64,000 bases of DNA, taken from IMG/VR virus record IMGVR_UViG_3300028840_001821; one strand, written 5' to 3'. The notes beneath the pieces were generated by a model. That model worked only from the letters and a program-made list of their open reading frames with translations. It was not told the origin of the DNA and searched no databases. How positions within the stretch are numbered: position 1 is the first letter of the stretch; the number at the start of each line of letters is the position of its first letter. Below are positions 9,758 to 31,932 of the stretch, one piece after another. Made by a program: the position numbers and the translations under genes. The stretch comes from a virus (lineage: Duplodnaviria; Heunggongvirae; Uroviricota; Caudoviricetes).

Positions 9758-9779
9758 AGGGGTGAAAGGAAAGAAAACC

Positions 9780-10664: not shown

Positions 10665-10692
10665 TTGACAGCGCCGCCCTATAGGATATAAT
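10665..10692 (+). promoter_or_regulatory. sigma70 consensus promoter (TTGACA-N16-TATAAT)
   Basis: The block cttgacagcgccgccctataggatataattagggtgaaaggg is nearly identical to the block at 11082. Confidence 0.6.
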
Positions 10693-10715
10693 TAGGGTGA
10701 AAGGGACAAACAACC

Positions 10716-10934
10716 ATGAGCAACATCGAAATTCTGGACGACGGGCGAACCGTCGGCTACAACGTGCGCGACCTACTGCGCGAGGCAATCAAGGATATGG
10801 ACGTTCCCGAGATGAGACGCGACACATCAAGCGACTCAAACGTCCGATGGTTGAGCCGAAACCTCGCCATCCAAAATCGGGACAACGAGAATTTCCGCGT
10901 GGCGATGCACTTCATCCGCGCCCTACTGTCATGA
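10716..10934 (+). CDS. hypothetical protein
   Basis: 72 aa. The track ORF 10697..11101 is a frame that begins in the leader. Confidence 0.45.
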   Translation: MSNIEILDDGRTVGYNVRDLLREAIKDMDVPEMRRDTSSDSNVRWLSRNLAIQNRDNENFRVAMHFIRALLS

Positions 10935-11101
10935 GTAACCGATCAGAACATCGTAAGGTAGCAGCGAAACGCGCCGGTAAGGGCGGAGTAAACTGCTACT
11001 GCTGCGATCCGTCACCCCGCGAGAAGAAGAAATTCTTTCGCACTATCCGGCGGATACTCAAGAGAAAATTCCGAAAGGAACTTGACAGCGCCGCCGGGTA
11101 G
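10931..11101 (+). CDS. small basic Cys protein
   Basis: ATGA overlap with the upstream stop; 56 aa (..GVNCYCCDPSPREKKKFFRTIRRILKRKFRK..). Its 3' end contains the next promoter. Confidence 0.35.
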   Translation: MSNRSEHRKVAAKRAGKGGVNCYCCDPSPREKKKFFRTIRRILKRKFRKELDSAAG

Positions 11102-11109
11102 GGTATAAT
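11082..11109 (+). promoter_or_regulatory. sigma70 consensus promoter (TTGACA-N16-TATAAT)
   Basis: A duplicate of the 10665 block, followed by the leader ggggtgaaaggaaggaaagccATG. Confidence 0.6.
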
Positions 11110-11131
11110 TGGGGTGAAAGGAAGGAAAGCC

Positions 11132-11479
11132 ATGAACGAGAAACCAACGGCAGAAAGCCTCGGACTCCACGCCGATACGCACGAGCGGTGGACGTGGTTC
11201 TCCCAAATCGGCTACAAACCGCCGCAGGAGGACGTCGATACCGTCCGCGAGGCGTTCTATCAGGACTATGAGTATGCCTGCTACAAGCGGGATACGTTCG
11301 AGTGGTTGGGCAACGTCAAGCCGAATCACCTTGCCGACGCGCAAGCCGGTGCCGACTCAAGGGGATTGGCGGTAGTCTTCCTGAAACTACCGATGCCCGC
11401 GCATGACCCGTCCGAACTGCCCGACGATGAGCCGCCAAGCGGGTGGGATTCATCGTGGGGGGAGGACCCGAGAGAATAA
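11132..11479 (+). CDS. hypothetical protein
   Basis: 115 aa, starting after the conserved leader. Confidence 0.5.
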   Translation: MNEKPTAESLGLHADTHERWTWFSQIGYKPPQEDVDTVREAFYQDYEYACYKRDTFEWLGNVKPNHLADAQAGADSRGLAVVFLKLPMPAHDPSELPDDEPPSGWDSSWGEDPRE

Positions 11480-11480
11480 C

Positions 11481-11565
11481 GGGCGTGAGACTGGCTTTCG
11501 ACCCGGCGTAAGACCCGAAAAGGGAGCGACCGGGGACCTCGGTTCAATTCCGAGCACGTCCACCA
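11481..11565 (+). ncRNA. tRNA-like structured RNA with encoded CCA
   Basis: The 5' gggcgtg pairs with the 3' cacgtcc acceptor, followed by A-CCA. There is a perfect T arm (ctcgg-ttcaatt-ccgag) and an internal stem (ctttcg/cgaaag). At 85 nt it does not fold as a standard cloverleaf in my hands. Confidence 0.4.
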
Positions 11566-11579
11566 GAATACCAAACGAT

Positions 11580-11735
11580 GGGAACGTCGGACCGCCGGGG
11601 AACCTTAGCGGGTTCCGTTAGGTAGCATAGTGCTTAGGTCCGGTTGAGAGACACCGAGCCGGATAGGTGTCAGTGGAAAGCCGTGCGCACGGTCGGAAGC
11701 GTTCGAGGCGGGGTGCAATTCCCCACGTTCCTACC
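11580..11735 (+). ncRNA. tRNA-like-ended structured RNA, about 155 nt
   Basis: The 5' gggaacg pairs with the 3' cgttcct at the far end, next to a T-arm-like cgggg-tgcaatt-cccc. The interior has several perfect hairpins (ggaacc-ttagcg-ggttcc, ccgtgcgcacgg, ccgg..ccgg). Confidence 0.3.
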
Positions 11736-11758
11736 CTTTTAATCCGAAATGCATTCTG

Positions 11759-11884
11759 CAAATAGGGTTTGATTTCCATGGCAGGAAAACGCCCCTATAG
11801 TAGTAGCGACGATCACATCCGAACATCTTTTTCTCATAACGAGACTTCGGACGTTTGGATCTGAACATCCGACCGGGGCGCGGA
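11759..11884 (+). repeat. composite intergenic repeat unit (copy a)
   Basis: caaataggg..ttccatggcaggaaaac..ccctatag, then 20 nt, then tccgaacatctttttctcataacgagac..cggacgtttggatctgaacatcc. Confidence 0.55.
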
Positions 11885-11957
11885 GCGAGTCTCATCCCGA
11901 GATTCCGATGTTCGGATAGGATTCTCTGACGGCTGCTGAGAAAAAAAGAAAATCACC

Positions 11958-11985
11958 TTGACGGCAAGCCACTTCGTGATATAAT
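11958..11985 (+). promoter_or_regulatory. sigma70 promoter (TTGACG-N16-TATAAT)
   Basis: Followed by the leader ggggtgaaaggcaaggaaacaaa..aaaggagcaaaatcATG. Confidence 0.6.
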
Positions 11986-12031
11986 TGGGGTGAAAGGCAA
12001 GGAAACAAACCCGCTCGAAAGGAGCAAAATC

Positions 12032-12760
12032 ATGAAGGCAACGCTCGAAATGGTCAAGGCGGTCGAGACCCCCGCCCCCACGGACACCTGGAACCCGATC
12101 TCGCACGTGGACTTCCTGGACGTGATCGAGTCGCAACTCCGGCAGGAAGGCTGGCGGTTGCACGAGACCCGGCACGATCTCGCAAAGGGCGGAATCCGCT
12201 ACACCGGACGCGCTCTCCTGATTCCGGCGGACGTGTCGGAAGTGGTTCGCGCCGGAGCGGACGTCAAGCTCATGCTCGGTTGGGCGAACTTCCTCGACAA
12301 GTCCCGGGCGGCGACGATTCTCGGCGGCTCGGACGTGTTTATCTGCTCGAACGGTCAGATGTTCGCGGAGCACAAGGTCTCCGGCAAGCACACCACGAAC
12401 GTAATCCGGACCCTCCGGTCGCGGTTCGCGGGTGCCCTGGACTCGATCCTGAACCGGTTCGACGATGAGGTCCGCCGGTTCGAGGAGTTCAAGGAAACCG
12501 CCCTGGAGCGCCCGGACATGGCGGAAATGATCCTCGACGCCCGCAAGCGGGGTGCCCTTCCCGCCGCCGACGTCCTCAAGGTGATGGCGGAATACGACGC
12601 CCCGTCCTTCGAGGAGTTCAAGGGCGGAACGGTCTGGACCGGGTTCAACGCCTTCACCACGGTCGCACGGGCGCGTTTCGAGAAGAATCCCGCCGCCGCC
12701 GCCGATGAGTCGCTCGCCTTGGGCGAACTGTTCGAGGAGCGATACCCGATCGCCAGCTAA
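12032..12760 (+). CDS. hypothetical protein
   Basis: Strong RBS aaaggagcaaaatcATG, 242 aa. The opposite-strand ORF 11834..12778 is judged spurious. Confidence 0.5.
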   Translation: MKATLEMVKAVETPAPTDTWNPISHVDFLDVIESQLRQEGWRLHETRHDLAKGGIRYTGRALLIPADVSEVVRAGADVKLMLGWANFLDKSRAATILGGSDVFICSNGQMFAEHKVSGKHTTNVIRTLRSRFAGALDSILNRFDDEVRRFEEFKETALERPDMAEMILDARKRGALPAADVLKVMAEYDAPSFEEFKGGTVWTGFNAFTTVARARFEKNPAAAADESLALGELFEERYPIAS

Positions 12761-12765
12761 CCGAC

Positions 12766-12790
12766 CACCGGACCGCAAGGTCCGGTGTTT
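12766..12790 (+). terminator. hairpin caccggaccgcaaggtccggtg plus uuu
   Basis: Perfect stem immediately after the stop codon. The same ggaccgcaaggtcc core recurs after other genes. Confidence 0.45.
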
Positions 12791-12863
12791 CCCTTAGCCG
12801 AACAAACGATGAAGCGGTCCGAACGTCGGTAGCCAGAGGGCAAAAAGAAATTCTGAAAAGGGT

Positions 12864-12891
12864 TTGACTAAGGCATTTGACGTGCTATAAT
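12864..12891 (+). promoter_or_regulatory. sigma70 promoter (TTGACT-N16-TATAAT)
   Basis: Followed by the leader aggggtaagaaaggacggaaaccATG. Confidence 0.6.
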
Positions 12892-12914
12892 AGGGGTAAG
12901 AAAGGACGGAAACC

Positions 12915-13262
12915 ATGAGCCTGAAAGACGAAATTCACGACGTGTTCGCCAGCGAGAACGCAGTGCTGGACCCGGACGACGCGGAGAACCTGACCGCCGC
13001 CCTGTTCGCGCAAGTGCCCGCGCTGGACTACAACATCAACCCCAACGGAATCACGGTCTGGACGCCCGACAAAGCGCCCGAGTGGGCGAAGAAGCACGCG
13101 CCGGAGAAGACCATGCACATAGCGTGGATTCCGATCACGGCGGGGCGAGTGACCGCCCTATTCGGTCCGGGGACCGCCTTCGGCAAGGGGTTCCAACTTC
13201 AGACGGTCACGCTTCCCGGGGACGTCAAGGGCTTTCTTGCCTACGGCACCGAAAGCGAGTAA
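12915..13262 (+). CDS. hypothetical protein
   Basis: 115 aa. Confidence 0.5.
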   Translation: MSLKDEIHDVFASENAVLDPDDAENLTAALFAQVPALDYNINPNGITVWTPDKAPEWAKKHAPEKTMHIAWIPITAGRVTALFGPGTAFGKGFQLQTVTLPGDVKGFLAYGTESE

Positions 13263-13363
13263 CCGACCCGGACGTCGCAAGCGCGGCGTCCACCTTGCGG
13301 CGGAATATCCGACCTAACGGTCCGAACGTCGGAACCTTCCCTGCTTTTTTACGAGGATTCTGG

Positions 13364-13391
13364 TTGACAATCGCCGTAGGCGAGTTATAAT
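13364..13391 (+). promoter_or_regulatory. sigma70 consensus promoter (TTGACA-N16-TATAAT)
   Basis: Sits ahead of a roughly 170-nt structured leader before the 13563 gene. Confidence 0.55.
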
Positions 13392-13562
13392 AGTAGTGAG
13401 CTTAAGACCTCACGCAATAGCCAAACAACCATCCCGGCGAAGGCTGGAAAACCGGGGCGATAAATGAGGCGCTAATGCGACGGCTACTAAACCGTAAGTG
13501 GCTAAAACCCACCCTCACGGGGGACCTTAAGCTTTCTCTTATTTTCACAACAGGAGAAGACT

Positions 13563-13724
13563 ATGCAAGCGATGAACCTGACCGCAATCGACCAACTGTT
13601 CGAGAAGAACCCGGAGATCAAATCCAACCGGGCAAGGCGGAACGCGATCCACAACGCCGCCCCGTGGCTCACGAAGGATGAGGCGGGACAGGCGCTCGCT
13701 CTATGGCTCCGCTATCGCGGGTAA
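13563..13724 (+). CDS. small protein (53 aa)
   Basis: Strong RBS acaggagaagactATG. Not in the ORF track because it is shorter than 60 aa. Confidence 0.4.
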   Translation: MQAMNLTAIDQLFEKNPEIKSNRARRNAIHNAAPWLTKDEAGQALALWLRYRG

Positions 13725-13740
13725 ACGAAAATCCATTCTA

Positions 13741-13880
13741 CAAATAGGGTAAGGTTTCCATGGCAGGAAAACCGCCCTATAGATTAACAGACAAAGCGGT
13801 CCGAACATCTTTTTATCATTCCGAGACCGTCTCAAAATGAGACGCCGCACATCGGACGTTTGGGTCTGAACGTCCAAACC
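13741..13880 (+). repeat. composite intergenic repeat unit (copy b)
   Basis: The same architecture as copy a, and it includes a perfect palindrome gtctcaaaatgagac at 13829-13843. Confidence 0.55.
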
Positions 13881-13924
13881 TCACGCCTCGCAAACCCCGT
13901 GCCAAAAGAAATTCTAATTTCGAC

Positions 13925-13952
13925 TGGACTCGATTCCTATTCGTGCTATAAT
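13925..13952 (+). promoter_or_regulatory. promoter (TGGACT-N16-TATAAT)
   Basis: Perfect -10 but a weaker -35. Followed by the leader aggggtgacaagcaaaggagaacaggagaaaaatcATG. Confidence 0.45.
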
Positions 13953-13987
13953 AGGGGTGACAAGCAAAGGAGAACAGGAGAAAAATC

Positions 13988-14209
13988 ATGAGTCGCTGGT
14001 CACTGCCCGGATACGATGAGTGGAAAACCACGGACCCCAACGAGACCGACCCGGCGGACTATGAGTGCCGCATGTGTGACCTCGACGGGGACGAGTGCCA
14101 ATGTGAGAATCAGGACGATTGGGTCCTGAAAGACAACGAGCCGGACGACTACGACGACGACTACGACGACGCCGACGTGTGCGACCGGTTCTATAGCCCC
14201 TACGACTAA
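13988..14209 (+). CDS. acidic Cys-containing small protein
   Basis: 73 aa, ..CRMCDLDGDECQCENQDDW.., with a poly-D/Y tail. Confidence 0.45.
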   Translation: MSRWSLPGYDEWKTTDPNETDPADYECRMCDLDGDECQCENQDDWVLKDNEPDDYDDDYDDADVCDRFYSPYD

Positions 14210-14462
14210 CAGGAGGATTCAAACAATGGGCTACTGACTCGCAGCCTAAGCCCGACTCCCAGGCGATAGGGAAGTCGGTTGGGCGCTGAAGTATCGTCCC
14301 GTCGGATTAGCTACCCGGCGGTTGTAATGGCGGGAGTTAGCTACCCGTCGCACCTACCTTCGGATGTTCCGATCCGAACCTCCCTACCTTATGCCGTTCC
14401 GGCGTCTCAAATCGGGACAAAGAAAATTCCAGATTTAGCTTTACTGATACTCCGTTTGGGCT

Positions 14463-14468
14463 ATAATA
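14463..14468 (+). promoter_or_regulatory. -10 TATAAT (weak -35 TTACTG at 14441)
   Basis: The context gggctataatagatatagaaacggaggacaaaaATG matches the cassette pattern. Confidence 0.35.
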
Positions 14469-14490
14469 GATATAGAAACGGAGGACAAAA

Positions 14491-14646
14491 ATGGTTGTCA
14501 TTCTCAGCATACCCGGCGGGTTTCAAGATACGGTCGAGACCGTAGTGGTGCCCGGGGCGAAAACCGCGAAACAGGCAATCGCGGAAGCCAAGAAACAATT
14601 TCCCCGTGAGAAGCGGGATTCAATCCGAGCGGAGGTAAGGAAATGA
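14491..14646 (+). CDS. small protein (51 aa)
   Basis: MVVILSIPGGFQDTVETVVVPGAK... Its stop overlaps the next start (ATGA). Confidence 0.4.
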   Translation: MVVILSIPGGFQDTVETVVVPGAKTAKQAIAEAKKQFPREKRDSIRAEVRK

Positions 14647-14990
14647 GTCTCACAAAGAAACACTTCGTCGATCTCGCAAAGAGACTCGGCGAGGAGAACG
14701 CCAGCGACCGTCTCATTTCGGGAATCGCGGATTTCTGCGAGGAGCACAATCCCCGGTTCGACCGGACCCGGTTCATCCAGGCTGTCGAGGAGAATCGGGA
14801 CGTCAACCGTTGCACCAAGTGTAACGAGGTCATTCCCGATTTGGGACAGGCGTTGACGCAATTCTGCGCCACGTGCGCCACCGAAAACGAGGACTTCGAC
14901 GAATCACCCTGTATTCGGTGCATGGCGGAGAACGAGCGCGAATGCACGTGCGGCGACTATCTGGCGATTGACAACGACCCCCTCTTCTAA
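14643..14990 (+). CDS. Cys-rich zinc-binding protein
   Basis: 115 aa with several CxxC-type pairs (CTKCNEV..CATCATEN..CIRCMAENERECTCGD). Confidence 0.5.
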   Translation: MSLTKKHFVDLAKRLGEENASDRLISGIADFCEEHNPRFDRTRFIQAVEENRDVNRCTKCNEVIPDLGQALTQFCATCATENEDFDESPCIRCMAENERECTCGDYLAIDNDPLF

Positions 14991-14997
14991 GGATTAG

Positions 14998-15015
14998 CGG
15001 ACCGCAAGGTCCGTT
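14998..15015 (+). terminator. hairpin gcggaccgcaaggtccgt
   Basis: Same ggaccgcaaggtcc hairpin family, placed after the stop codon. Confidence 0.4.
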
Positions 15016-15067
15016 ATTCGCTGCCAGCTTCGGACGTTCGGAGCCGAACCTTATTCCAAGATTCTCC

Positions 15068-15095
15068 TTGATTGTAGCGCCCAACGTGCTATAAT
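15068..15095 (+). promoter_or_regulatory. sigma70 promoter (TTGATT-N16-TATAAT)
   Basis: Followed by the leader agaagtgaaaggagacaaggaaATG. Confidence 0.55.
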
Positions 15096-15117
15096 AGAAG
15101 TGAAAGGAGACAAGGAA

Positions 15118-15477
15118 ATGCCAAGACGATACCCAACCGAACCCGTCGAGGACCCCGCAGTCATTTGCGAGGGATGCGGCAACGAGTTCAACGTGGACGA
15201 TTTCACCGACGGACTGTGCTTCGATTGCCTTCAAGATCTCGAATACGAGCGCAACTGCGAAATGCGCGAACTGGCAAACGACCCGGATTCCCCCTACTTC
15301 ATGGCGGACCGGTTCGCGGACCCCGGCGGCGACTCGTGCCTCTACCCGGAAACCGACGACAACCCGCGCAATCTCGCGTGCCCCAACTGCGGAGCGGAGA
15401 ACGTGCTAACCCCGGCGGACCGATCGGCGGGCTATCAGTGCGACCCGTGCGCCCGGCAGGCGGAAATGGGTTTCTAA
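15118..15477 (+). CDS. Cys-rich zinc-finger protein
   Basis: 119 aa (CEGCGNEF..CFDCLQD..CPNCGAEN..CDPCARQ). Confidence 0.5.
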   Translation: MPRRYPTEPVEDPAVICEGCGNEFNVDDFTDGLCFDCLQDLEYERNCEMRELANDPDSPYFMADRFADPGGDSCLYPETDDNPRNLACPNCGAENVLTPADRSAGYQCDPCARQAEMGF

Positions 15478-15492
15478 TCCACGAATCCCTGT

Positions 15493-15612
15493 CAATTTAC
15501 AAGGCAGGGATTTTGCCCTATAGAGGTTAAGATGAAGCGATCCGAACATCTTTTTCTCATTCCGGGATTTCTCACAATGAGAATCGGACGTTTGAATCTG
15601 AACATCCGAACC
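15493..15612 (+). repeat. composite intergenic repeat unit (copy c)
   Basis: caatttacaaggcagggattttgccctataga..tccgaacatctttttctcattccgggatttctcacaatgagaatcggacgtttgaatctgaacatccgaacc. Confidence 0.55.
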
Positions 15613-15657
15613 GTGCTCGCTGCAAATCCCGTGCCAAAAAGAAAAAACAAAAAGGGC

Positions 15658-15685
15658 TTTACTGTGAGCGATACCATGCTATAAT
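15658..15685 (+). promoter_or_regulatory. sigma70 promoter (TTTACT-N16-TATAAT)
   Basis: Followed by the leader aagagtgaaaggaaacagaacaATG. Confidence 0.5.
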
Positions 15686-15707
15686 AAGAGTGAAAGGAAA
15701 CAGAACA

Positions 15708-15893
15708 ATGGTCAACCCGAGAAACGCAAGGCGATACCTGATTCTAAGGGAATTGCTCCGGGACTTCGGACGATTCGCTCTCTACTTTGTAGTCGGGACA
15801 ATCGCGCTGTTTCTCATTTGGGGACTATGCGAGGGTATCAAGGATACGTGTTTCCCAAAATGGAACCACGTGCCCTATGTTGAGGGAAGGTGA
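15708..15893 (+). CDS. small membrane protein
   Basis: 61 aa containing a TM helix (FALYFVVGTIALFLIWGL). Confidence 0.45.
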   Translation: MVNPRNARRYLILRELLRDFGRFALYFVVGTIALFLIWGLCEGIKDTCFPKWNHVPYVEGR

Positions 15894-15896
15894 AAA

Positions 15897-16130
15897 ATGT
15901 TCCGGAGGAAGCGTAAGCTGGCAGTGACGCTGACCGTGAAAAAGGTTCCGGTCGAGGTCGAATACGAGCATTTCAATCTGAGACGCCGCGCAACGGTCGA
16001 GGTCGCCCCGTGTCTCAATGTGGAACGCACGATGCGCCGCGCCGAGAATCTCATTCGGAGAATGGTCGGTTTCGGCAACGGACCGGACAGTCTGAAAATC
16101 GTTCACACCAGCATGGTCGTCTCATCGTGA
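15897..16130 (+). CDS. hypothetical basic protein
   Basis: RBS gagggaaggtgaaaaATG, 77 aa. Confidence 0.4.
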   Translation: MFRRKRKLAVTLTVKKVPVEVEYEHFNLRRRATVEVAPCLNVERTMRRAENLIRRMVGFGNGPDSLKIVHTSMVVSS

Positions 16131-16221
16131 GACGGCGGGCGGACCAAGTGTCCGTCTTCTCTTACGAGCTAACGACGTTCGCATCCGAACAGCGGACCGG
16201 CGATTTCTTTTTGGTTTTTCC

Positions 16222-16249
16222 TGGACTCTCGCGCCCAATGGGCTATAAT
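16222..16249 (+). promoter_or_regulatory. promoter (TGGACT-N16-TATAAT)
   Basis: The block ctggactctcgcgcccaatgggctataatagaggtgaaaggg is nearly identical to the block at 18502. Confidence 0.5.
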
Positions 16250-16271
16250 AGAGGTGAAAGGGAAACAAATC

Positions 16272-16739
16272 ATGCGATACGAAGAACTGTTAGGAAGCCA
16301 CATAACGCCGATGGAAGCGGCGGAAATGGCGGAAGAGACAACCCCGTCGTGGCGTCCCGATCTGGAAGACGTTGGAACGTCCGAGGAAATGGCGTCGGTA
16401 ATGGGACGTTTCGCCGAGCGATTCGAGAGCGACATTCTCGAACTGAGAAAGATCCCGATTGCGGATTGCTGTGTCGGGTGGGCGACCGTTTGGGAAGACG
16501 CCGTCCAAGACTACGCCGAGCGCATGGCAGCGGGCGAAATGGACTATCCGCCGATCATCGCCAGCGCGAACGATCCCGAGGATACTTGGTCAAGCCGCTG
16601 GACCGTGGAAGACGGGTCGCACCGCTGTCTCGCTCTGAGACAGATCGGAATCACTCACGTATATGCTTACGTCGAAGTGGACGAACATCTTGAGCCGCTG
16701 GTCCTGAATACGACGCCGGATTTACCGTTTCCCGAATAG
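16272..16739 (+). CDS. ParB/sulfiredoxin-like domain protein
   Basis: The ..WTVEDGSHRCLALRQIGITHVYAYV.. motif (DGxHR..A) is typical of the ParB N-terminal nuclease/NTPase-like domain. Confidence 0.45.
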   Translation: MRYEELLGSHITPMEAAEMAEETTPSWRPDLEDVGTSEEMASVMGRFAERFESDILELRKIPIADCCVGWATVWEDAVQDYAERMAAGEMDYPPIIASANDPEDTWSSRWTVEDGSHRCLALRQIGITHVYAYVEVDEHLEPLVLNTTPDLPFPE

Positions 16740-16866
16740 AGACAACTGTTCTCCCCTTTCAAAATGAGACGACCGACCGAAACCCGAACGGGAAACTCGG
16801 TCGTCTCGCTTTGGGACACCGGCGGTTCGGACCTGAACGTCGCTACCACTTTATTCTAAATTTCGT

Positions 16867-16894
16867 TTGACTAATAGCCTGAAGGGACTATAAT
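16867..16894 (+). promoter_or_regulatory. sigma70 promoter (TTGACT-N16-TATAAT)
   Basis: Followed by atagttgaacggagagaaacATG. Confidence 0.55.
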
Positions 16895-16914
16895 ATAGTT
16901 GAACGGAGAGAAAC

Positions 16915-17292
16915 ATGTATATCAGATTCGAGATGAGCGGTCACGAACGGAACTACGGTATTTTTACCGGCTGGCGTGACGCTCTCGGTGTAAATTGGGA
17001 TGATGAGACTTATATCGAAATAGATGAGCTTATGGCGAAAGCTGGTAGGATACTGCCGGTCGCCCATATTCCCATGAACGGAGGTAGGTGCTGGTTTAAG
17101 GATACGCCCCAAACCAAGCAGGTTATCGAGCTTCTTCGTGACGCCGCCGACCTTATGCTGGACGTATACGACGTTTCTGTTTCTGAGATACATACAGAGG
17201 ACCTTGAGGTCGTTTGGGAAGATGAATTTCAGGTGGTGGTTCCCGAAGAAAATATGAGTTTTCCCTTGCGTAGCGCCGTTCCCGTGCTATAA
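16915..17292 (+). CDS. hypothetical protein
   Basis: 125 aa. Its 3' end carries the next promoter. Confidence 0.5.
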   Translation: MYIRFEMSGHERNYGIFTGWRDALGVNWDDETYIEIDELMAKAGRILPVAHIPMNGGRCWFKDTPQTKQVIELLRDAADLMLDVYDVSVSEIHTEDLEVVWEDEFQVVVPEENMSFPLRSAVPVL

Positions 17293-17293
17293 T
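17266..17293 (+). promoter_or_regulatory. promoter (TTGCGT-N16-TATAAT)
   Basis: Lies inside the end of the upstream gene, followed by the leader agaagtgaaagcaaaggagaacggaaacATG. Confidence 0.45.
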
Positions 17294-17321
17294 AGAAGTG
17301 AAAGCAAAGGAGAACGGAAAC

Positions 17322-17615
17322 ATGAGCTGGACAAAAGAATACTTCGATAGCCTTCCCCACCCGAAAACGATGAGCCTAACGGATCTTTTCGGGGAGATCG
17401 AGGGAGCGGGCGACAGCATCGCCGAAATCGAGGGTGAAATCGCCGCCTTCGGCGACAGCGCCCCGGGCACATACTGGATGCTGGCACGCTATCGCTGGGT
17501 GATCGGCGAGATTCGCCGCCGCGAGGACGTGGAACGCCAGCGCCAGCGCCAGCGCGACGAAGCGCGGGCACTATTCCGCCCGGCAGCGGACGGGCTGGAA
17601 GACGTCCCATTTTGA
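17322..17615 (+). CDS. hypothetical protein
   Basis: 97 aa with a C-terminal RQRQRQRD repeat. Confidence 0.5.
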   Translation: MSWTKEYFDSLPHPKTMSLTDLFGEIEGAGDSIAEIEGEIAAFGDSAPGTYWMLARYRWVIGEIRRREDVERQRQRQRDEARALFRPAADGLEDVPF

Positions 17616-17762
17616 AACACGCATGATTTCCTCCGGAGCGACCACCGGGTCCAGGTGAAGCGTCAGACTTACCGATCTAAACGTCGGTAAGGAGTCAGCC
17701 CTGCTCGGTGGTCTCTTTTTGATTCGCCTCGAACGTTCCGACCCGAACGTCGTTTGTAAACT

Positions 17763-17920
17763 ACAAATCTCTGCCGGATTGCAAGGCAGGGATTTTTACC
17801 TATAGAACAAAAGAGGATCAGATCTGAACATCGTTTTCTCATATCGAGACCCAACGAAATATCGGTGCGACGTTCCGATCTGAACGTCGGAAGCACAACG
17901 CGTCTCATTCTGAGACCAGC
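17763..17920 (+). repeat. composite intergenic repeat unit (copy d)
   Basis: caaatctctgccggattgcaaggcagggatttttacctataga..gatctgaacatcgttttctcatatcgagac..cgttccgatctgaacgtcgg..gtctcattctgagac. Confidence 0.55.
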
Positions 17921-17952
17921 AAATAGTGTGCCATAGAAAATAAAAAAAAAGC

Positions 17953-17980
17953 TTGACTGTGATCCCGTGCATGGTAGAAT
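17953..17980 (+). promoter_or_regulatory. sigma70 promoter (TTGACT-N16-TAGAAT)
   Basis: Followed by gagggtagaaacggagggacgaaATG. Confidence 0.5.
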
Positions 17981-18003
17981 GAGGGTAGAAACGGAGGGAC
18001 GAA

Positions 18004-18387
18004 ATGAAAATCGCAATCAAAGGCAAGGGCAAAAACGAGAAAGTCGCTCGCCTGATCCGCAATGGTTTTCCGTGGTATCGTAAGCACGCCGTCCACGTGC
18101 GCATCGGCACCACGGTGGAGCTACAAGGAACGGCATGGTTTGAGGGAAGCCGCTCGGACTACTACTGGTTCAACACAATCACTGGCGAGTCTCGCTCGAT
18201 CGGCGTTTCGCGTAATCCGGCGCAATTCGGAGGTCCGACGGAAACGCCTACGGTCGAGACCGGCGGGCATCGTGCGGTAGTCGAGGGCGGTTTTTTCTGC
18301 GGCAAGGCGTCCACGCTCATGATCGTAATCAATCCCGACGATGTGGGCGCGATCGGCGACGCTTATCGGGAAGCCGTCGCAGTCTGA
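18004..18387 (+). CDS. hypothetical protein
   Basis: 127 aa. Confidence 0.5.
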   Translation: MKIAIKGKGKNEKVARLIRNGFPWYRKHAVHVRIGTTVELQGTAWFEGSRSDYYWFNTITGESRSIGVSRNPAQFGGPTETPTVETGGHRAVVEGGFFCGKASTLMIVINPDDVGAIGDAYREAVAV

Positions 18388-18501
18388 GACAAGTTCTTCG
18401 TTCTCCCAATACGAGACGACCGACCGAATCCGGAACTCGGTCGTCTCACTTTTAGACTGAGTAAAGGACGTTTAGATCCGAACGTTTTCTTTAGATTTCG
18501 C

Positions 18502-18529
18502 TGGACTATCGCGCACAATGAGCTATAAT
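18502..18529 (+). promoter_or_regulatory. promoter (TGGACT-N16-TATAAT)
   Basis: A duplicate of the 16222 block, followed by agaagtagaaaggaaacgaaacATG. Confidence 0.5.
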
Positions 18530-18551
18530 AGAAGTAGAAAGGAAACGAAAC

Positions 18552-18911
18552 ATGCGAATCAAAGAAGTAACGGATCAAGGCGGCACGATCTTCGAGGGCG
18601 AAGTCTATCCCTTCGCGTGCTACTGCGGCGAGGAATACCAGACCGCCGAGGCGGCTTGGAATTGCCGCAAGTGCCGCACGTATCTCGAACCTGAAACGTT
18701 CGCCAACCGAGAGGTCTATCATTTCACCGGCGATCGTGAGCCGACGCAAGCGGAGTTGATGGAACCGACCCCGGAGTCGCTGGCGTTCGAGGCGATGTTC
18801 GATGAGGACGGACTCAGCGACGTCGAGGCGGACGCCATGACTCTCAGGGATGCCGGGATGGGCACCGATGAGGATTACGGATACTTCGGCGACGATGGCG
18901 ACGACTGGTAA
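18552..18911 (+). CDS. zinc-ribbon protein
   Basis: CYCGEEY..CRKCRTY, 119 aa with an acidic C-terminus. Confidence 0.5.
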   Translation: MRIKEVTDQGGTIFEGEVYPFACYCGEEYQTAEAAWNCRKCRTYLEPETFANREVYHFTGDREPTQAELMEPTPESLAFEAMFDEDGLSDVEADAMTLRDAGMGTDEDYGYFGDDGDDW

Positions 18912-18918
18912 AGGAGGA

Positions 18919-18941
18919 ACGGACCGAAAGGTCCGTTTCTT
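18919..18941 (+). terminator. hairpin acggaccgaaaggtccgt plus UUCUU
   Basis: Perfect 7-bp stem followed by a U-rich tail after the stop codon. Confidence 0.5.
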
Positions 18942-18999
18942 ACGGCGTGCTTCGGACGTTCGGATCCGAACATCGGTAGTAGAAATCTAAGAAAAAGGA

Positions 19000-19027
19000 T
19001 TGACAATCGTGCGGAGCACGGTATACT
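19000..19027 (+). promoter_or_regulatory. sigma70 promoter (TTGACA-N16-TATACT)
   Basis: Followed by gtaaatagaaaggcggagaacaATG. Confidence 0.55.
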
Positions 19028-19049
19028 GTAAATAGAAAGGCGGAGAACA

Positions 19050-19253
19050 ATGGCAGAACCGACCGAGAAAAGCCCAGCAATCAACGATCTTCTTTCCAAG
19101 CTCGCCGGACGTGACCGGGTCGAGTCAATCAAAAGTGACGATTGCGTCGCCTGCGGTGAGCCCGCGACGGAGTTCAACGATGAGATCAGCGAGCGGGAGT
19201 TCAAGATCTCCGGACTCTGCCAGGATTGCCAAGACGACTTCTTCGGCACCTAA
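19050..19253 (+). CDS. small zinc-binding protein
   Basis: 67 aa, DDCVACGEP..CQDCQDD. Confidence 0.45.
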   Translation: MAEPTEKSPAINDLLSKLAGRDRVESIKSDDCVACGEPATEFNDEISEREFKISGLCQDCQDDFFGT

Positions 19254-19330
19254 CAGCCCGGCGTTACCACGTGGTAACGTCGCCGCTCGTGATAACGACG
19301 TTCAAGCCCGAACCTATTTAGAAGAATGCC

Positions 19331-19358
19331 TTGACAACGGTATTAACTATGATATAAT
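19331..19358 (+). promoter_or_regulatory. sigma70 consensus promoter (TTGACA-N16-TATAAT)
   Basis: Followed by gtaaatagaaaaggagaacaaacATG. Confidence 0.6.
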
Positions 19359-19381
19359 GTAAATAGAAAAGGAGAACAAAC

Positions 19382-19615
19382 ATGCCCCACTGGATCAAAA
19401 GACGCGAAGCCGAAAACAGGATCGACCTGGCAAAAGATTCCGCCTTCTATGGTGGTATCGCGGACCTGGTGGTCTATCTCCAGAGCGAAAAGTTCCATAC
19501 CGATACGACCGTCCAGGTGAGCGACGTTCTCAATCGGATACAAGCTGCCAAGGATCAAGCCGAAGAAGCGAAAGCCGAACAAGCCCGATACGAGACGGAT
19601 AGGGGTAATCTCTAA
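19382..19615 (+). CDS. hypothetical protein
   Basis: 77 aa. Confidence 0.45.
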   Translation: MPHWIKRREAENRIDLAKDSAFYGGIADLVVYLQSEKFHTDTTVQVSDVLNRIQAAKDQAEEAKAEQARYETDRGNL

Positions 19616-19620
19616 ATGAG

Positions 19621-19645
19621 ACGGGGCGCAAGCCCCGTTCTCTCA
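19621..19645 (+). terminator. hairpin acggggcgcaagccccgt plus ucucuc
   Basis: GC stem with a gcaa loop right after the stop codon. Confidence 0.4.
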
Positions 19646-19713
19646 CCGCCCGCGCCATACGTTCGGACCCGAACATCGGTAGCAGACCGGCAAAAAGAAA
19701 TTCTGAAAAAGAC

Positions 19714-19741
19714 TGGACTGAAACCGCCCGCGTGCTATAAT
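19714..19741 (+). promoter_or_regulatory. promoter (TGGACT-N16-TATAAT)
   Basis: Followed by acaagtagaaaggacggagaacaATG. Confidence 0.5.
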
Positions 19742-19764
19742 ACAAGTAGAAAGGACGGAGAACA

Positions 19765-20001
19765 ATGATCGAAAACAATCGCGCAACTGTCGCCAAGTGG
19801 ATCGATACCGATCGCTTCTCGTATCTGGTAGTGGATCACGCCGGAAACACGGACTTCGCTGAGGTCCCGATGGCGGACCCTCGGGTCGTTTGGGTGAACT
19901 CGGTAATCGCTTCTTCGCTCGCCCGCTTCTACAACCAGAACGGGAACGCCGCTGGCGGGCACTACATCGCCGTGGTCGAGATCCCCACCGTCACCGCCTA
20001 A
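19765..20001 (+). CDS. hypothetical protein
   Basis: 78 aa. Confidence 0.45.
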   Translation: MIENNRATVAKWIDTDRFSYLVVDHAGNTDFAEVPMADPRVVWVNSVIASSLARFYNQNGNAAGGHYIAVVEIPTVTA

Positions 20002-20022
20002 TCGAAAACCAAAATCACAAAT

Positions 20023-20041
20023 GCCCCGGAAAACCCGGGGC
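20023..20041 (+). terminator. hairpin gccccggaaaacccggggc
   Basis: Perfect 7-bp GC stem after the stop; no clear U-run. Confidence 0.35.
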
Positions 20042-20062
20042 ACAGAATCTCTCTTATATAGG

Positions 20063-20360
20063 TTCGGACCTAGCGATCTGAACATCTTTTTCTCATTCTG
20101 AGACGTCTCGTTTTGAGACGTGCGAAATCGCACGCCGAGAAATTCTTTCCGTTACCGCACGGTAACGTCTCGAAATGATAATCGGACGTTCGGATCGGAA
20201 CGTTGTGTCATTCTGAGAATACGCACGGCGCATTACGCACGGCGCGTATTCTCATTCTGAGCTTGCGACGTTCGGACCTGATTCTCTTTTTCTCTTTACG
20301 AGATTCTATCGATTGGCACGGGAATTGCTTTGTGTCTCATTCTGAGACAAAAGAAAATCC
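20063..20360 (+). repeat. cluster of GTCTCA/TGAGAC palindromes and GGAYCTGAACRTC units (copy e)
   Basis: ggttcggacctagcgatctgaacatctttttctcattctgagacgtctcgttttgagacg, followed by three more TCTCATTCTGAGA units and a hairpin gagaatacgc..gcgtattctc. Confidence 0.55.
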
Positions 20361-20431
20361 GGAATGGACTAAAGGAAAACCCGGAAACCGCCGATAAGTA
20401 AAGTAGGCAAGCAAAAGAAAGGAAAACGAAA

Positions 20432-20521
20432 ATGAGAATCTCGAAACTCGGAACGGTTTTCGCTCTCGGGTTCGCCCTGGGAATGGCGTTTTCCGCTCTC
20501 ATAGTGGGACTGGTAGGATGA
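20432..20521 (+). CDS. 29-aa hydrophobic micro-peptide
   Basis: Leader gcaaaagaaaggaaaacgaaaATG, MRISKLGTVFALGFALGMAFSALIVGLVG. Its stop overlaps the next ATG. Confidence 0.3.
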   Translation: MRISKLGTVFALGFALGMAFSALIVGLVG

Positions 20522-20703
20522 TAGTCCTTCTCAATCCGAGACTCGCCGAAACGTTGGATCTCGAAATGATCCGTCGGGAATTGCCCGGGGTTCAAATTGA
20601 GGTCCAGGAAGAACGCCGGGATCTCGAAACGAGACCGCCGGAAAAGGGAATCGACGAAACATGGCGGGAACGCGCTAAGTCGTTGGGCTATAACGTCTTA
20701 TGA
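20518..20703 (+). CDS. hypothetical protein
   Basis: 61 aa, ATGA-coupled to the upstream micro-ORF. Confidence 0.4.
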   Translation: MIVLLNPRLAETLDLEMIRRELPGVQIEVQEERRDLETRPPEKGIDETWRERAKSLGYNVL

Positions 20704-20729
20704 CGATTCGCGCGGAATCGGGAAATCAC

Positions 20730-20757
20730 TTGACCCGTTCCGACCCTATGGTAGAAT
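20730..20757 (+). promoter_or_regulatory. sigma70 promoter (TTGACC-N16-TAGAAT)
   Basis: Followed by gtaagtgaaaggggattcaaacATG. Confidence 0.5.
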
Positions 20758-20779
20758 GTAAGTGAAAGGGGATTCAAAC

Positions 20780-21031
20780 ATGAAAAAGCAAACGGTCGAA
20801 TCGGACGGAAAAGTTTACCACTTGACGCCCAAAAACGAGACTCGTCCCGTTTTGGGACCGACGGAAATTCCTTCCCACGGACGCCGATTCCGGGGCAGGA
20901 TCATTCTGAGAAACGCCGCCGGAGAAACCACGTGGGAAAATTCTCAGAATGAGGTTGGAATCCAGGGTTTCCGCCCCGTGAGAATCCGCTACAATGCGGA
21001 AACGGGAACGGCGGAAGTGGCGTCCTACTAA
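20780..21031 (+). CDS. hypothetical protein
   Basis: 83 aa. Confidence 0.45.
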   Translation: MKKQTVESDGKVYHLTPKNETRPVLGPTEIPSHGRRFRGRIILRNAAGETTWENSQNEVGIQGFRPVRIRYNAETGTAEVASY

Positions 21032-21068
21032 CGAGTTAGGCGGTTCCGGTCTTTTTCTCGGAATCGCC

Positions 21069-21096
21069 TTGCAATCCGCCCCTACTATGGTATTCT
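21069..21096 (+). promoter_or_regulatory. promoter (TTGCAA-N16-TATTCT)
   Basis: The -10 context atggtattcttagggtgaa matches the 7385 promoter (atggtattcttggggtgaa). Confidence 0.45.
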
Positions 21097-21145
21097 TAGG
21101 GTGAATAGGGGACACGAAAACAGCACAAACGAAAGGAAATCAGCT

Positions 21146-21511
21146 ATGTTCGGAAATGAGACTACCACCTACGCACTACGGATCACCAGCGCGGTTCTCA
21201 AACTGGGACTCGCCTACTCCCCGGAAATCGTTTCCGAAGCGGGCGTCCCGGAAGCATACGGGCAAAAAATTCTCACCAAGCTCTCCCGGGCGGGTATCAT
21301 TTTGAGCCGCAAGGGTCGCGGGCACGGATGCGGAATCCGTATCAATCCGGAACGGCTGGAAACGCCGCTCGCGGAAATCTTTTCCCTCTTCGCCCCGCCC
21401 CGTCTCGAAATGGAGAATGCCGGACCTGCGGGTCGGGTTCTGGACGGTCTCCTGAAGGGTCTCGAAACGAGAACCGCCAGTCTCAAAGTGAGAGATCTCC
21501 AGGACGGCTAA
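21146..21511 (+). CDS. Rrf2-family (winged-helix) transcriptional regulator
   Basis: TYALRITSAVLKLGLAY..EIVSEAGVPEAYGQKILTKLSRAGIILSRKGRGHGCGIRI matches the Rrf2/BadM HTH pattern (YALR..L..LA..IS...GI....L.KIL.KL.KAG.I.S.RG..GGY.L). Confidence 0.55.
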   Translation: MFGNETTTYALRITSAVLKLGLAYSPEIVSEAGVPEAYGQKILTKLSRAGIILSRKGRGHGCGIRINPERLETPLAEIFSLFAPPRLEMENAGPAGRVLDGLLKGLETRTASLKVRDLQDG

Positions 21512-21518
21512 CAGCGAA

Positions 21519-21550
21519 AGACCTTCCCACCCGGGAAGGTTTTTCTTTGT
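21519..21550 (+). terminator. rho-independent terminator
   Basis: The stem accttcccacccgggaaggt is followed by TTTTCTTTG. Confidence 0.6.
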
Positions 21551-21900
21551 GCCTGCCCGTCTCATATTGAGACGCCAGCATGTGCGCCGTTCGGGTCGAA
21601 ACGTCCGTTTCTCCTGAGACGCTCATAGCGCCGATCTGACGACGTTTGAATCGGAACGTGGACTATGTATCGGTTCGGGCTTGCGTGGATTGTAGGGGCG
21701 TTTCTGCCCGTCTCAGAGGGTGTCCACAAAATAGGACAGTAGGACGTTCGGACGTGAACATCGTATCACAATGAGACAACGATATATCGGTGTATCATAA
21801 TAAGATGAGCGTTATCGCACGTATCATATTGAGACGCGGGCTATCGTCTCAGGATGGGAATTTTTCAAATCTCAGGGTGAGACGCCCGTCTCAAAAGGGG
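21549..21900 (+). repeat. dense cluster of CGTCTCA / TGAGACG half-sites downstream of the Rrf2 gene
   Basis: At least eight copies of gtctca or tgagac(g) in 350 nt (ccgtctcatattgagacgcc, ctcctgagacgc, ccgtctcagagg, cacaatgagaca, catattgagacgcgggctatcgtctcagg, tctcagggtgagacgcccgtctcaaaagg). No convincing ORF spans it. Confidence 0.55.
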
Positions 21901-22380
21901 ACCGGGGGTTCTGTCGCAGGATTTATCAAATCTGGGCTAAACTCTTCATTTATGCTTGCCCAGCGCGGGCGACCAGAGGGAGGTTTTCTGCCTTACGAGC
22001 CGCGAAGCGGATTTCGGAAGATTTTGTTGAAGAAATTTGTTCAAAATGCCATAATAGTAGTGGAGACCAGTGCCTTTTTATCGTATAGTTCAGATACAGG
22101 AAGTAGTAAATGAAGTTGAGAGATTCTGCAACTCGACTTCCGTTTTTGAACTTTGACATTCGATGTGGGTGAGAAGAGAGAGCTTGGTGAATTGAACGGG
22201 AGCTGTGGTGTGAGCCAGCGCGAAGGCGAGACCACCTAGATGTATCCCGGGAACCCTCGACGGTGACTGAGACAGGGTCATGGCGCGAGGCAAATAGCCG
22301 TCTGTTTCGGCTCTCTCTTTCCGCCCACGGGCGTGTAGCTTTACCAGTCACCTTAAATCTTCTTCTTAGGGACCTTGACC

Positions 22381-25259: not shown

Positions 25260-25655
25260 ATGCACTGGTCGGAACTAGATAGTACACAAAAGCGTGGCGA
25301 TGTTGGCATGAGCATGGCTATCGCCTATTTCACGAGACACGGATATACGGTTTCTATCCCGCTGACTGATAGTCAAGATTACGACTTAATCGCTGATCTC
25401 GGCGGGGCTCTTGTTAGGGTCCAGGTAAAGACTACAACGTACAAGCGTCCAAATGGCGTTAGCGAAGTCAGCCTAAAGACCATGACCGGAACTACAAAGA
25501 AGCGGATACACAAGACGTTTGACCAAGTATCATGCGACTACCTATTTGTCGTTACGACCGAAGATAGGATGTTCATGATCCCCAAGGATGAGGTGGCTGG
25601 GAAAACCACCCTGGCGATCGAGAACAAGTATGCGGCATATGAGGTAGAACTATAG
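25260..25655 (+). CDS. PD-(D/E)XK-type nuclease family protein
   Basis: The motif ..DYDLIADLGGALVRVQVK.. (D-x13-E/Q-x-K pattern) sits in a small 131-aa protein embedded in the tRNA island. The position is typical for homing-type nucleases. Confidence 0.5.
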   Translation: MHWSELDSTQKRGDVGMSMAIAYFTRHGYTVSIPLTDSQDYDLIADLGGALVRVQVKTTTYKRPNGVSEVSLKTMTGTTKKRIHKTFDQVSCDYLFVVTTEDRMFMIPKDEVAGKTTLAIENKYAAYEVEL

Positions 25656-31323: not shown

Positions 31324-31332
31324 GTGACTTTA

Positions 31333-31932
31333 ATGGTTCTACCGTCTGGGACGCAGTTCGGATTATATTCCGCCAATTCCACAGAACGAGAAAAAGAAAT
31401 TACACAGGTAATCGAACTTGTAGTCAACATCAAGAAGAGTGCTTACGTAGGTGGAATGTATGATGACGACGATCTAGCGCAGGAACTTCGCATGAGACTA
31501 CTAAGGGCAGCAGAGAATCTGGATGCAGAAGCGCCGCCCTATAACTACCTCATGCGTTGTGCCGACAACTTTATCATCGACAAACGACGAGGCGTCTACC
31601 AGTACAACAATCCACCGTGTTCAGTTTGCGCCGCAGGCGGAGGGTGCCAACCCGACGGGAGCCAGTGTGCCGACTGGAGACGATACGAGAAGAATCTGCA
31701 CACCAAGAGGCAGATCGACAGCCCCATTCCACTAGGTGATTCCGACGTTCCGCAGTTCGACGTGACGTATGAGACCATTGTTGCGCGGGAACTGCACGAG
31801 CGGATCATCGCCGCCCTCCCATCCAGCCTACTTAAACCCTACCACAACATGATTACGGGCGGAGACGTATCAACGATGCAGCGGAACAAGATCCGTGCAA
31901 TTGTGAGGAAGTTGATGGAATATGACAGGTAG
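31333..31932 (+). CDS. sigma-factor-like protein (regions 2 and 4) with Cys-rich insert
   Basis: Region-2-like ..PYNYLMRCADNFIIDKRR.., region-4.2-like ..GGDVSTMQRNKIRAIVRKLMEY, and an internal CSVCAAGGGCQPDGSQC segment. Confidence 0.45.
   Translation: MVLPSGTQFGLYSANSTEREKEITQVIELVVNIKKSAYVGGMYDDDDLAQELRMRLLRAAENLDAEAPPYNYLMRCADNFIIDKRRGVYQYNNPPCSVCAAGGGCQPDGSQCADWRRYEKNLHTKRQIDSPIPLGDSDVPQFDVTYETIVARELHERIIAALPSSLLKPYHNMITGGDVSTMQRNKIRAIVRKLMEYDR

Follow-up and report, generated by a model that had tools for sequence, protein, structure and literature searches.

A minimal Rrf2-like protein and a dispersed 15-bp palindrome, its candidate operator, in the early region of a large uncultured tailed phage

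To our knowledge, all characterized regulators of the Rrf2 family, which are IscR, NsrR, RsrR, RirA, and CymR, are cellular sensors, and a literature search turned up no Rrf2 regulator encoded by a phage. NsrR, IscR, and RsrR sense NO, Fe–S status, or redox state, and they bind as dimers to inverted repeats, in which the base contacts of the recognition helix are mostly at positions ±4 to ±6 from the dyad. CymR of Bacillus subtilis and Staphylococcus aureus recognizes a site of about 27 bp at a few metabolic promoters. Among phages, a single small protein acting at tens of scattered intergenic sites, many of them away from promoters, is known from the stoperators of mycobacteriophage L5 gp71 and from the C1 operators of phage P1. 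Both kinds of sites are asymmetric, and the stoperators, in addition, have an orientation bias and are part of temperate immunity, with helix–turn–helix (HTH) repressors of other families.

Here, we describe a locus in a 64,000-nt stretch of DNA (the window) from the IMG/VR virus record IMGVR_UViG_3300028840_001821, a large uncultured tailed phage. The gene at 21146–21511 (+ strand) encodes a predicted 121-aa Rrf2-like winged-helix protein without an Fe–S cluster, while the early region (6.7–22.4 kb) contains about 40 copies of a 15-bp palindrome with 6-3-6 geometry, called P1 below, which is a candidate operator of this protein. The phage protein has in common with CymR the H-wHTH (winged HTH) domain, the wing, and the long dimerization helix, and both are without the three-cysteine Fe–S site. 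On the other hand, the two proteins are only 16–20% identical, the phage-encoded one is shorter because its ligand loop is deleted, and the putative phage operator is unlike the CymR site in its geometry and copy number. With NsrR, IscR, and RsrR the phage protein shares the fold and the wing motif, but these proteins have Fe–S ligands and operators of 23–25 bp, whereas the phage protein is without cluster ligands and no effector site is evident in it. In contrast to the asymmetric stoperators with their one orientation, the P1 palindrome is symmetric and is confined to one 15-kb early region. A regulator that controls a regulon is already a known kind of system, as are phage repressors whose operators are dispersed. 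The new features are the cluster-less mini-Rrf2 protein, its occurrence in a large, apparently lytic phage, and a symmetric 15-bp site, which is found in tandem arrays, by terminators, and together with a second element.

The P1 palindrome was searched for as GTCTCANNNTGAGAC (GTCTCA-N3-TGAGAC) with up to two mismatches, and the counts were compared with those in dinucleotide shuffles. The data showed 43 sites in the window and 3.21 ± 1.83 in the shuffles (largest 10). Nearly all of the sites (41 of 43) fell within 7061–21902, where, by our own gene model, they occupied 14 of the 23 intergenic regions of the early DNA, besides the 3′ ends of some genes. In the 7.2 kb of early noncoding DNA, as defined by our own gene model with its crude codon score, 28 sites were observed and 0.31 expected, and at up to one mismatch the corresponding numbers were 13 and 0.03. 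The early coding DNA contained nine sites, mostly at the 3′ ends of genes, against an expectation of 0.30. In the remaining 48 kb two sites were observed and 2.7 expected, which is no enrichment, and none of the genes outside the early region had a P1 upstream. An earlier interpretation made from the DNA letters without database searches (the sequence-only reading) had proposed that the palindrome is nonrandom and enriched in intergenic DNA, which the comparison with the shuffles bore out, while its statement that P1 occurs in more than 15, or almost every, intergenic region was somewhat overstated. It had correctly placed one perfect copy at 13829, but two others, given as 17896 and 20331, were off by 3–6 nt and really start at 17902 and 20334, and the copies at 16119 and 21559, which bring the total of perfect copies to five, had been overlooked. 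Its count of at least eight half-sites in the densest cluster agrees with the nine exact TGAGAC/GTCTCA hexamers and seven palindromes at up to two mismatches found in 21550–21900, while its remark on the Esp3I/BsmBI and BsaI restriction sites carries no evidential weight.

The spacing of the P1 half-sites was rigid, with 27 occurrences of TCTC-N5-GAGA and 0–4 for all other spacers from 0 to 25. The refined consensus, c-GTCTCR-wWn-YGAGAC-g, was dyad-symmetric with equally conserved half-sites. Its conserved core of 15–17 bp covers positions ±2 to ±7 from the dyad, the 3-nt spacer is A/T-rich with similar frequencies of A and T, and the flanks are G/C-rich and weakly conserved. When the departures from the consensus were classified by their effect on pairing between the arms, 16 gave G·T and 15 gave A·C combinations, 30 gave other, non-pairing ones, and a single one preserved Watson–Crick pairing; G·T was not in excess over A·C, and no strand asymmetry was observed. 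Additionally, in an orthologous P1 site of the related contig L001, GTCTCA is changed to GTATCA without a compensating change in the other arm. The rigid spacing and the independent variation of the half-sites indicate that P1 is a dyad-symmetric site for protein binding at the level of DNA rather than an RNA hairpin.

The Rrf2 similarity of the 21146–21511 product, which the sequence-only reading had also proposed, was supported by the match to the Pfam profile PF02082 (E = 1.5e-6, 28.9 bits, residues 6–70), which is marginally below the curated cut-off of 30 bits, and the structure search agreed with it. Seven homologs at 69–91% identity were found in metagenomes, and the Rrf2 profile was matched by eight of eight family members, with the best E-value of 7.3e-8. 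A full-library profile search returned a tiny clade with one distant member, P0008 (E = 2.5e-16, 38% identity), beyond which it gave canonical-length Rrf2-like proteins aligning end to end. The sequence search of PDB gave a weak match to NsrR alone (E = 0.023), so that a fold search was needed for the family assignment. The AF2 model (pLDDT 88.4; helices H93–112 and H115–120) has the full-length Rrf2 fold, in which a winged HTH is followed by a long C-terminal dimerization helix, with no extra domain. In the Foldseek search of PDB the top 36 matches were all Rrf2 proteins, CymR, NsrR, IscR, and RsrR among them, with TM values of 0.61–0.74 over about 120 residues, while MarR-type proteins ranked below; the best match was CymR (3t8r, TM 0.74, full length). 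The helix-3/wing motif of the family, Lx3Gx6Gx2GGx2L (PMC9338935), is kept at five of its six positions, as L46-SRA-G50-IILSRK-G57-RG-[H60]G61-CG-I64, and it is the first G of the GG pair that varies within this clade. The three cysteine ligands are absent, with the sole cysteine, C62, located in the wing, and the cysteine-bearing ligand loop of canonical Rrf2 proteins is deleted in nine of nine clade members, which is the reason for the cluster-less assignment. Within the protein, conservation is highest in the recognition helix and the wing, and this holds even for the member of 38% identity. Hence, the profile matches and the structural model indicate that the 21146–21511 product is a minimal, cluster-less member of the Rrf2 family.

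The gene itself is preceded by a TG-extended σ70-like promoter, TTGCAA-N16-TATTCT, at 21069–21096 (+), and followed by an intrinsic terminator, CCTTCCC-accc-GGGAAGG-TTTTT, at 21520–21548 (+), both read from the sequence. The related contig L007 keeps the tgGTATTCTTAGGGTGA promoter arrangement, with TTGACA, at 980–1007. The terminator also gave partial Rfam alignments of terminator type, while Rfam searches of the P1 field downstream from it returned nothing meaningful. A minus-strand ORF, 21176–21565, which was favored by the crude codon model, was rejected as a by-product of the + strand gene; the latter is preferred because of its Pfam and structural support and the conservative substitutions across eight homologs, and gene callers pick the + strand in every related contig. 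Among the early-region ORFs, most of which are without any annotation, the Rrf2-like ORF was the only one with a DNA-binding Pfam domain at E ≤ 0.01.

To compare the occurrence of P1 and of the protein, contigs encoding the homologs were collected and searched for P1. P1 was enriched in every related contig encoding the Rrf2-like protein, and the two co-occurred in five lineages, in one of which the protein is 38% identical, with the P1 core constant across phages of 44%–55% GC. At up to two mismatches, L001 contained 11 sites (expected 0.5), L004 contained 23 (expected 0.4), and L007 contained 11 in 2.3 kb, six of them in an array at 1–160, in which five copies are perfect and the first four are 28 bp apart. 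The contig L005, which encodes the protein of 38% identity, contained tandem P1 arrays of 6 and 10 copies with a period of 15–16 bp. Only three proteins common to L005 and the window were detectable, which were the Rrf2-like protein, gp7463, and gp8489. P1 was absent from the unrelated Rrf2 loci L009–L012. The location of the sites was also similar: dense P1 fields flank the operon of the Rrf2 gene in the window, L004, and L007, with the fields upstream of the homologous operon at 7327–7738 in L004 and 1–160 in L007, and for the first (21559) and last (21888) sites of the downstream field, L001 has sites at corresponding positions (10420 and 10670). The metagenome scan for the Rrf2-like protein returned short contigs only, and IMG/VR contained no homolog of it and no tandem P1. 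A scan of 185,579 genomes for tandem P1 gave eight matches, roughly the chance number by our own estimate, with no local P1 enrichment, and it therefore provided no clue to the host.

The early region contains about 20 near-consensus σ70 promoters (TTGACn-N16-TATAAT) between 7385 and 20757, with an unusually uniform spacer of 16 nt, each with an A-rich AAAAGAAATTCYGAAAA UP-like element and with a conserved leader AGGGGTGAAAGGA before the ATG. P1 overlaps none of their −35 and −10 elements, and the overlap with promoters typical of Cro or CI operators is thus not seen. For 20 promoters, the P1 centers were 29–124 bp or more upstream of the start of the −35 element. No significant helical phasing relative to the −35 element was found for P1 (Rayleigh p = 0.95 at 10.5 bp) or for the second palindrome, P2, described below. 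Because P1 is away from the −35 and −10 elements and unphased, simple promoter occlusion is unlikely. Several P1 sites (9693 and 14404) directly adjoin the A-rich UP element, which puts them near −64 relative to the inferred transcription start, and the perfect copy at 17902–17916 has its center 44 bp upstream of the −35 element at 17953. Several sites are located at stop codons, such as the perfect copy at 16119–16133, which overlaps the stop codon of the ORF 15897–16130, and the P1 pairs 16756/16803 and 18403/18443 bracket an intrinsic terminator hairpin. The perfect copy GTCTCAAAATGAGAC at 13829–13843 is a part of a composite of an R half-site, two P1 sites, and P2, and its consensus form is also present in L004, L005, and L007. 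The upstream field, 20090–20348, which precedes the operon with the Rrf2-like gene as its last gene, contains sites at 20090, 20105, 20205, and 20334 (up to two mismatches), two looser ones, and three P2/R elements. The downstream field, 21559–21902, which consists of the seven palindromes and nine hexamers of the densest cluster interleaved with three P2-like elements (21586, 21641, and 21743), is located in an 870-bp gene-free stretch with a short A/T-rich patch (21,785–21,810), and is bounded by the terminator of the Rrf2 gene and by the first late-type promoter motif at 22078, a placement that the sequence-only reading had not noted.

The second early-region palindrome, P2, which the sequence-only reading had also overlooked, is GGACGTTCGGATCYGAACATC, or in the extended form tTCGGACGTTCGGATCYGAACATCg, and is 22 bp long (11-0-11). 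The window contains 23 copies of P2 spanning 7232–21762, of which tTCGGACGTTCGGATCCGAACATCGG at 18955–18974 is the best example, with further ones at 11850–11869 and 15587–15606. All 26 occurrences of its half-site, TCYGAACRT, were in 6.7–22.4 kb, and the other 48 kb had none. P2 usually precedes the A-rich UP element of σ70 promoters and is found 17–38 bp from a P1, with most copies centered 25–100 bp upstream of the next −35 element. The shorter R half-site (TCYGAAC) is found at a fixed register beside P1, as in GAACATC-ttt-TTCTCA, in both orientations and both in the window and in its relatives, which suggests that R and P1 form a composite site for two side-by-side proteins. We also observed a module of five copies, with 98-nt units at 11747, 13729, 15470, 17752, and 20006, that is about every 2 kb, in which a stop codon, CTACAAAT, a hairpin, CCTATAG, the R half-site, TTT, and P1 follow one another; the hairpin sequence varies among the copies, while its pairing is kept. 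A related module, 'aaactacaaat...cctatatagag', precedes each of the P1 arrays of L005, at about 1890–1975 and 3400–3480.

The Rrf2-like protein had been described as the only recognizable transcription factor of the region, which was not correct, as the early gene at 8489–8977 (+) encodes a divergent ECF-like sigma factor of 162 aa (gp8489). This assignment is based on weak Pfam matches to Sigma70_r2 (E = 0.02) and to a C-terminal HTH (E = 0.026), on an AF2 model with two helical domains, and on the Foldseek search, in which the top 20 or so matches were all ECF sigma factors (E = 5e-3 to 0.1); gp8489 is conserved in the relatives, including a homolog in L005. A second phage sigma factor, gp31324, is encoded at 31324–31929 (+), just upstream of the structural module, and its Sigma70_r2 match (31.6 bits) is above the cut-off. 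The late-type motif TTATCGTATA, which first occurs at 22078–22087 (+), just downstream from the P1 field, has five perfect + strand copies (22078, 35583, 38339, 42006, and 58069) and a one-mismatch copy at 47651; on both strands, seven copies with up to one mismatch were observed and 2.0 expected. In the form TTATCGTATA(w)TA it is found ahead of the portal gene and several further structural genes, as well as ahead of a conserved noncoding stretch at 22.1 kb, and it is probably a −10-type element of the phage's own sigma factor, although no common −35 element partnering it was seen. The noncoding sequence at about 21,905–22,360 (+) is far better conserved with 10,760–11,215 of L001 than the adjacent P1 field is. 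It contains a long invariant closing helix, in which GAGAAGAGAGAGC (about 22,170) pairs with GGCTCTCTCTTTC (about 22,310), with five compensatory pairs inside, while it has no Rfam match and a folding z-score of −1.1 only. This stretch may be a structured noncoding RNA or a leader transcribed from the 22078 promoter.

We give about even chances to the reading in which P1 serves as operator for a dimeric DNA-binding protein of the phage, with the cluster-less Rrf2-like product of 21146–21511 as its most probable binder. The proposal of the sequence-only reading, an early-region regulator with a distributed operator set, is therefore plausible and partly supported: the statistics of the motif, its DNA-level character, the fold, and the co-occurrence in several lineages are observed, while we infer the identity of the binder, its dimeric binding, and the direction of regulation. 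In favor of the pairing are the P1 enrichment in every lineage with the protein and its absence from unrelated Rrf2 loci, the small number of proteins shared with L005, the dense fields flanking the operon, and the lack of a comparable DNA-binding Pfam match in other early ORFs. In the crystal structure of NsrR with its operator, the recognition helix contacts bases mainly at ±4 to ±6, and the wings at ±9 to ±11 (PMC9338935), and the P1 core covers the positions of the helix contacts. Several observations weigh against this assignment. Canonical Rrf2 operators are 23–25 bp long, with 11-1-11 or 11-3-11 geometry (PMC5015018), while the core of P1 is shorter and its flanks are weak where the wings of Rrf2 proteins read the outer positions, and the 22-bp length of P2 is closer to the usual one. 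Because no P1 overlaps the promoter of the Rrf2-like gene, the usual signature of autoregulation is missing, and P1 is also off every −35 and −10 element and unphased. Moreover, the co-occurrence in relatives cannot single out the Rrf2-like protein because related phages share other genes, with gp7463 and the sigma-like gp8489 also shared with L005, and small phage DNA-binding proteins often escape Pfam.

The serious alternative is that P1 is bound by another factor, which could be gp7463, another, unrecognized small phage protein, or a conserved host regulator, while the Rrf2-like protein acts elsewhere, for example on P2 or on host promoters. This explanation, which we consider possible, if somewhat unlikely, gains from the length of P2, from the P2 copies that also adjoin the Rrf2-like gene, from the fixed short distances between P1 and R/P2, which suggest two adjacent proteins, and from the lack of annotation of most early ORFs, together with the presence of gp7463 and gp8489 in L005. 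However, L005, L007, and L001 are all rich in P1 and encode the Rrf2-like protein, while the first two have no P2 and L001 has a single copy, and for this reason the conserved protein is more likely to pair with P1 than with P2. The Pfam search of the other early ORFs also argues against a different binder, as do the constancy of the P1 core across phages of different GC content and the conservation of the recognition helix and wing. It is also improbable that P1 acts as RNA, in the form of a 6-bp hairpin with a 3-nt loop serving processing, termination, or antitermination between early cistrons. Many P1 sites are indeed at or just past gene 3′ ends, and where P1 pairs flank a G+C-rich terminator (16756/16803 and 18403/18443, and also 10534 and 19608), their GAGAC and GTCTC lengthen the stem, while the second P1 of the pair provides the U-tract with its T-rich spacer. 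Nevertheless, the one Watson–Crick-preserving change stands against 61 that are pair-breaking or wobble, neither the similar numbers of G·T and A·C nor the spacer give a signature of the transcribed strand, and the relatives conserve the sequence and not the pairing, as in the GTATCA site of L001. The near-identical tandem copies in L005 and L007 are, moreover, typical of DNA-binding arrays, and the hairpin explanation was rejected on the basis of the noncompensatory variation and the absent strand asymmetry.

Two further explanations, both of which we regard as very improbable, concern replication and promoter recognition. The dense P1/P2 fields could be iterons that serve as an origin of replication or as a site of partition or packaging, with the winged-helix protein as the initiator or centromere binder. 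This would fit the repeated dyads and the A/T-rich patch in the gene-free stretch by the gene, the tandem arrays of the relatives, and the precedent of lambda O and plasmid Rep, which are winged-helix proteins binding iterons near their own genes. The sites are, however, dispersed over 14 intergenic regions and 15 kb, the cumulative GC skew has no inflection, the protein has the complete fold of an Rrf2 regulator with no extra domain, and replication or partition genes were not found adjacent to it. Alternatively, P1, the R half-site, or both could be promoter elements of a phage ECF-like sigma factor, either gp8489 or gp31324. The window encodes two sigma-like proteins, R shares the restriction of P1 to the early region, and ECF promoters typically have a GAAC-like −35 and a CGTC-like −10 element. 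However, no conserved element is found at a fixed 15–18 nt downstream from R, and the distance from GAAC to GTCTC varies from 16 to 24 nt; the R/P2 element was therefore rejected as the −35 of an ECF promoter for want of a fixed downstream −10. Also, P1 is dyad-symmetric with equal half-sites and absent upstream of genes outside the early region, while a separate late-type motif, TTATCGTATA, is present ahead of the structural genes.

If P1 is the operator of the Rrf2-like protein, this protein would be made early, from its own σ70-type promoter, and its dimer would put one recognition helix into each of the TCTC/GAGA half-sites, which are 9 bp apart and on either side of the A/T-rich spacer. 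Such dimers would occupy about 40 sites, all within the σ70-driven early region, including the two dense fields that flank their own operon, and in the relatives the arrays with a period of 15–16 or 28 bp. P1 would then mark the early block, which the early-made protein would damp, insulate, or time as the phage sigma factors take over. The location of the sites beside terminators and upstream of promoters, where they often adjoin the P2/R element and the A-rich UP region, rather than over −35 and −10 elements, points to a region-wide modulator and not to a promoter-occluding repressor; a Cro-like shut-off or an insulator in the early-to-late switch is the most likely form of it on the sequence evidence, and activation seems less likely than repression or insulation. 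This proposal resembles lambda Cro in that an early small dimer would lower the output of a whole set of strong promoters for the host sigma factor, while it differs in that Cro operators overlap promoters and P1 sites do not. It also resembles the host-takeover module of SPO1, where clustered strong early promoters are accompanied by TF1, in its many short cassettes, each with its own σ70 promoter; TF1 is, however, an HU-type protein recognizing modified DNA. A more far-reaching version, which we hold to be doubtful, is that a clade of large lytic phages has taken over an effector-less mini-Rrf2 protein for use as a region-wide silencer or insulator, with about 40 dispersed and tandem 15-bp operators that are located by terminators and ahead of σ70 promoters and are paired with R/P2. 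In such a silencer, operators 15–16 bp apart would put neighboring dimers on alternating faces of the helix, and the early region would be shut down or partitioned at the switch to transcription by the phage sigma factors. We know of no earlier account of such region-wide silencing by an Rrf2 protein or in a lytic phage.

The wider context of the locus is as follows. Every gene in the window is on the + strand, the early region is made up of short cassettes, with only about 54% of it coding by our gene model, 30 tRNA genes are located at 24.1–29.3 kb, and a structural module with terminase, portal, and tape-measure genes occupies 33–55 kb. No signs of lysogeny were seen within the window. Neither megablast of 13–22.5 kb nor tblastn of the Rrf2-like protein gave a match among cultured phages, and the terminase of the window is only about 25% identical to Bacillus phage terminases. 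A PD-(D/E)XK endonuclease gene (PDDEXK_5, E = 5.8e-23) is located inside the tRNA array at 25260–25655 (+), and one ORF of the first 31 kb, to which no position was assigned, matched the Acb2/Tad1 hairpin domain (6.8e-7) and is a candidate anti-defense protein. An 85-nt element at 11481–11565 (+), in early intergenic DNA, matched the Rfam tmRNA model (50.2 bits, E = 1.9e-17) above the gathering score, but through its tRNA-like ends only, which indicates a tRNA-like or mini-tmRNA element; it was missed by ARAGORN and by the gathering scan of the whole window. A further tRNA-like element, at 8258–8331 (+) within a 396-nt early intergenic region, was below the threshold (tRNA-Sec model, 26.5 bits), and contains a clear T-arm/acceptor-like sequence, ggttcgattcccacgcccgtccacc.

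The early program of this phage relies on about 20 σ70 promoters, on two control elements that recur, and on two sigma-like factors encoded by the phage. If the pairing of P1 with the Rrf2-like protein is true, a stripped-down Rrf2 scaffold without the sensing cluster would serve as a phage timing device. About 40 natural operator variants, together with the tandem arrays of the relatives, would then be an unusually rich dataset on DNA recognition by Rrf2 proteins, and the pairing would provide a handle on the early transcription of a tRNA-rich uncultured phage of about 170 kb.

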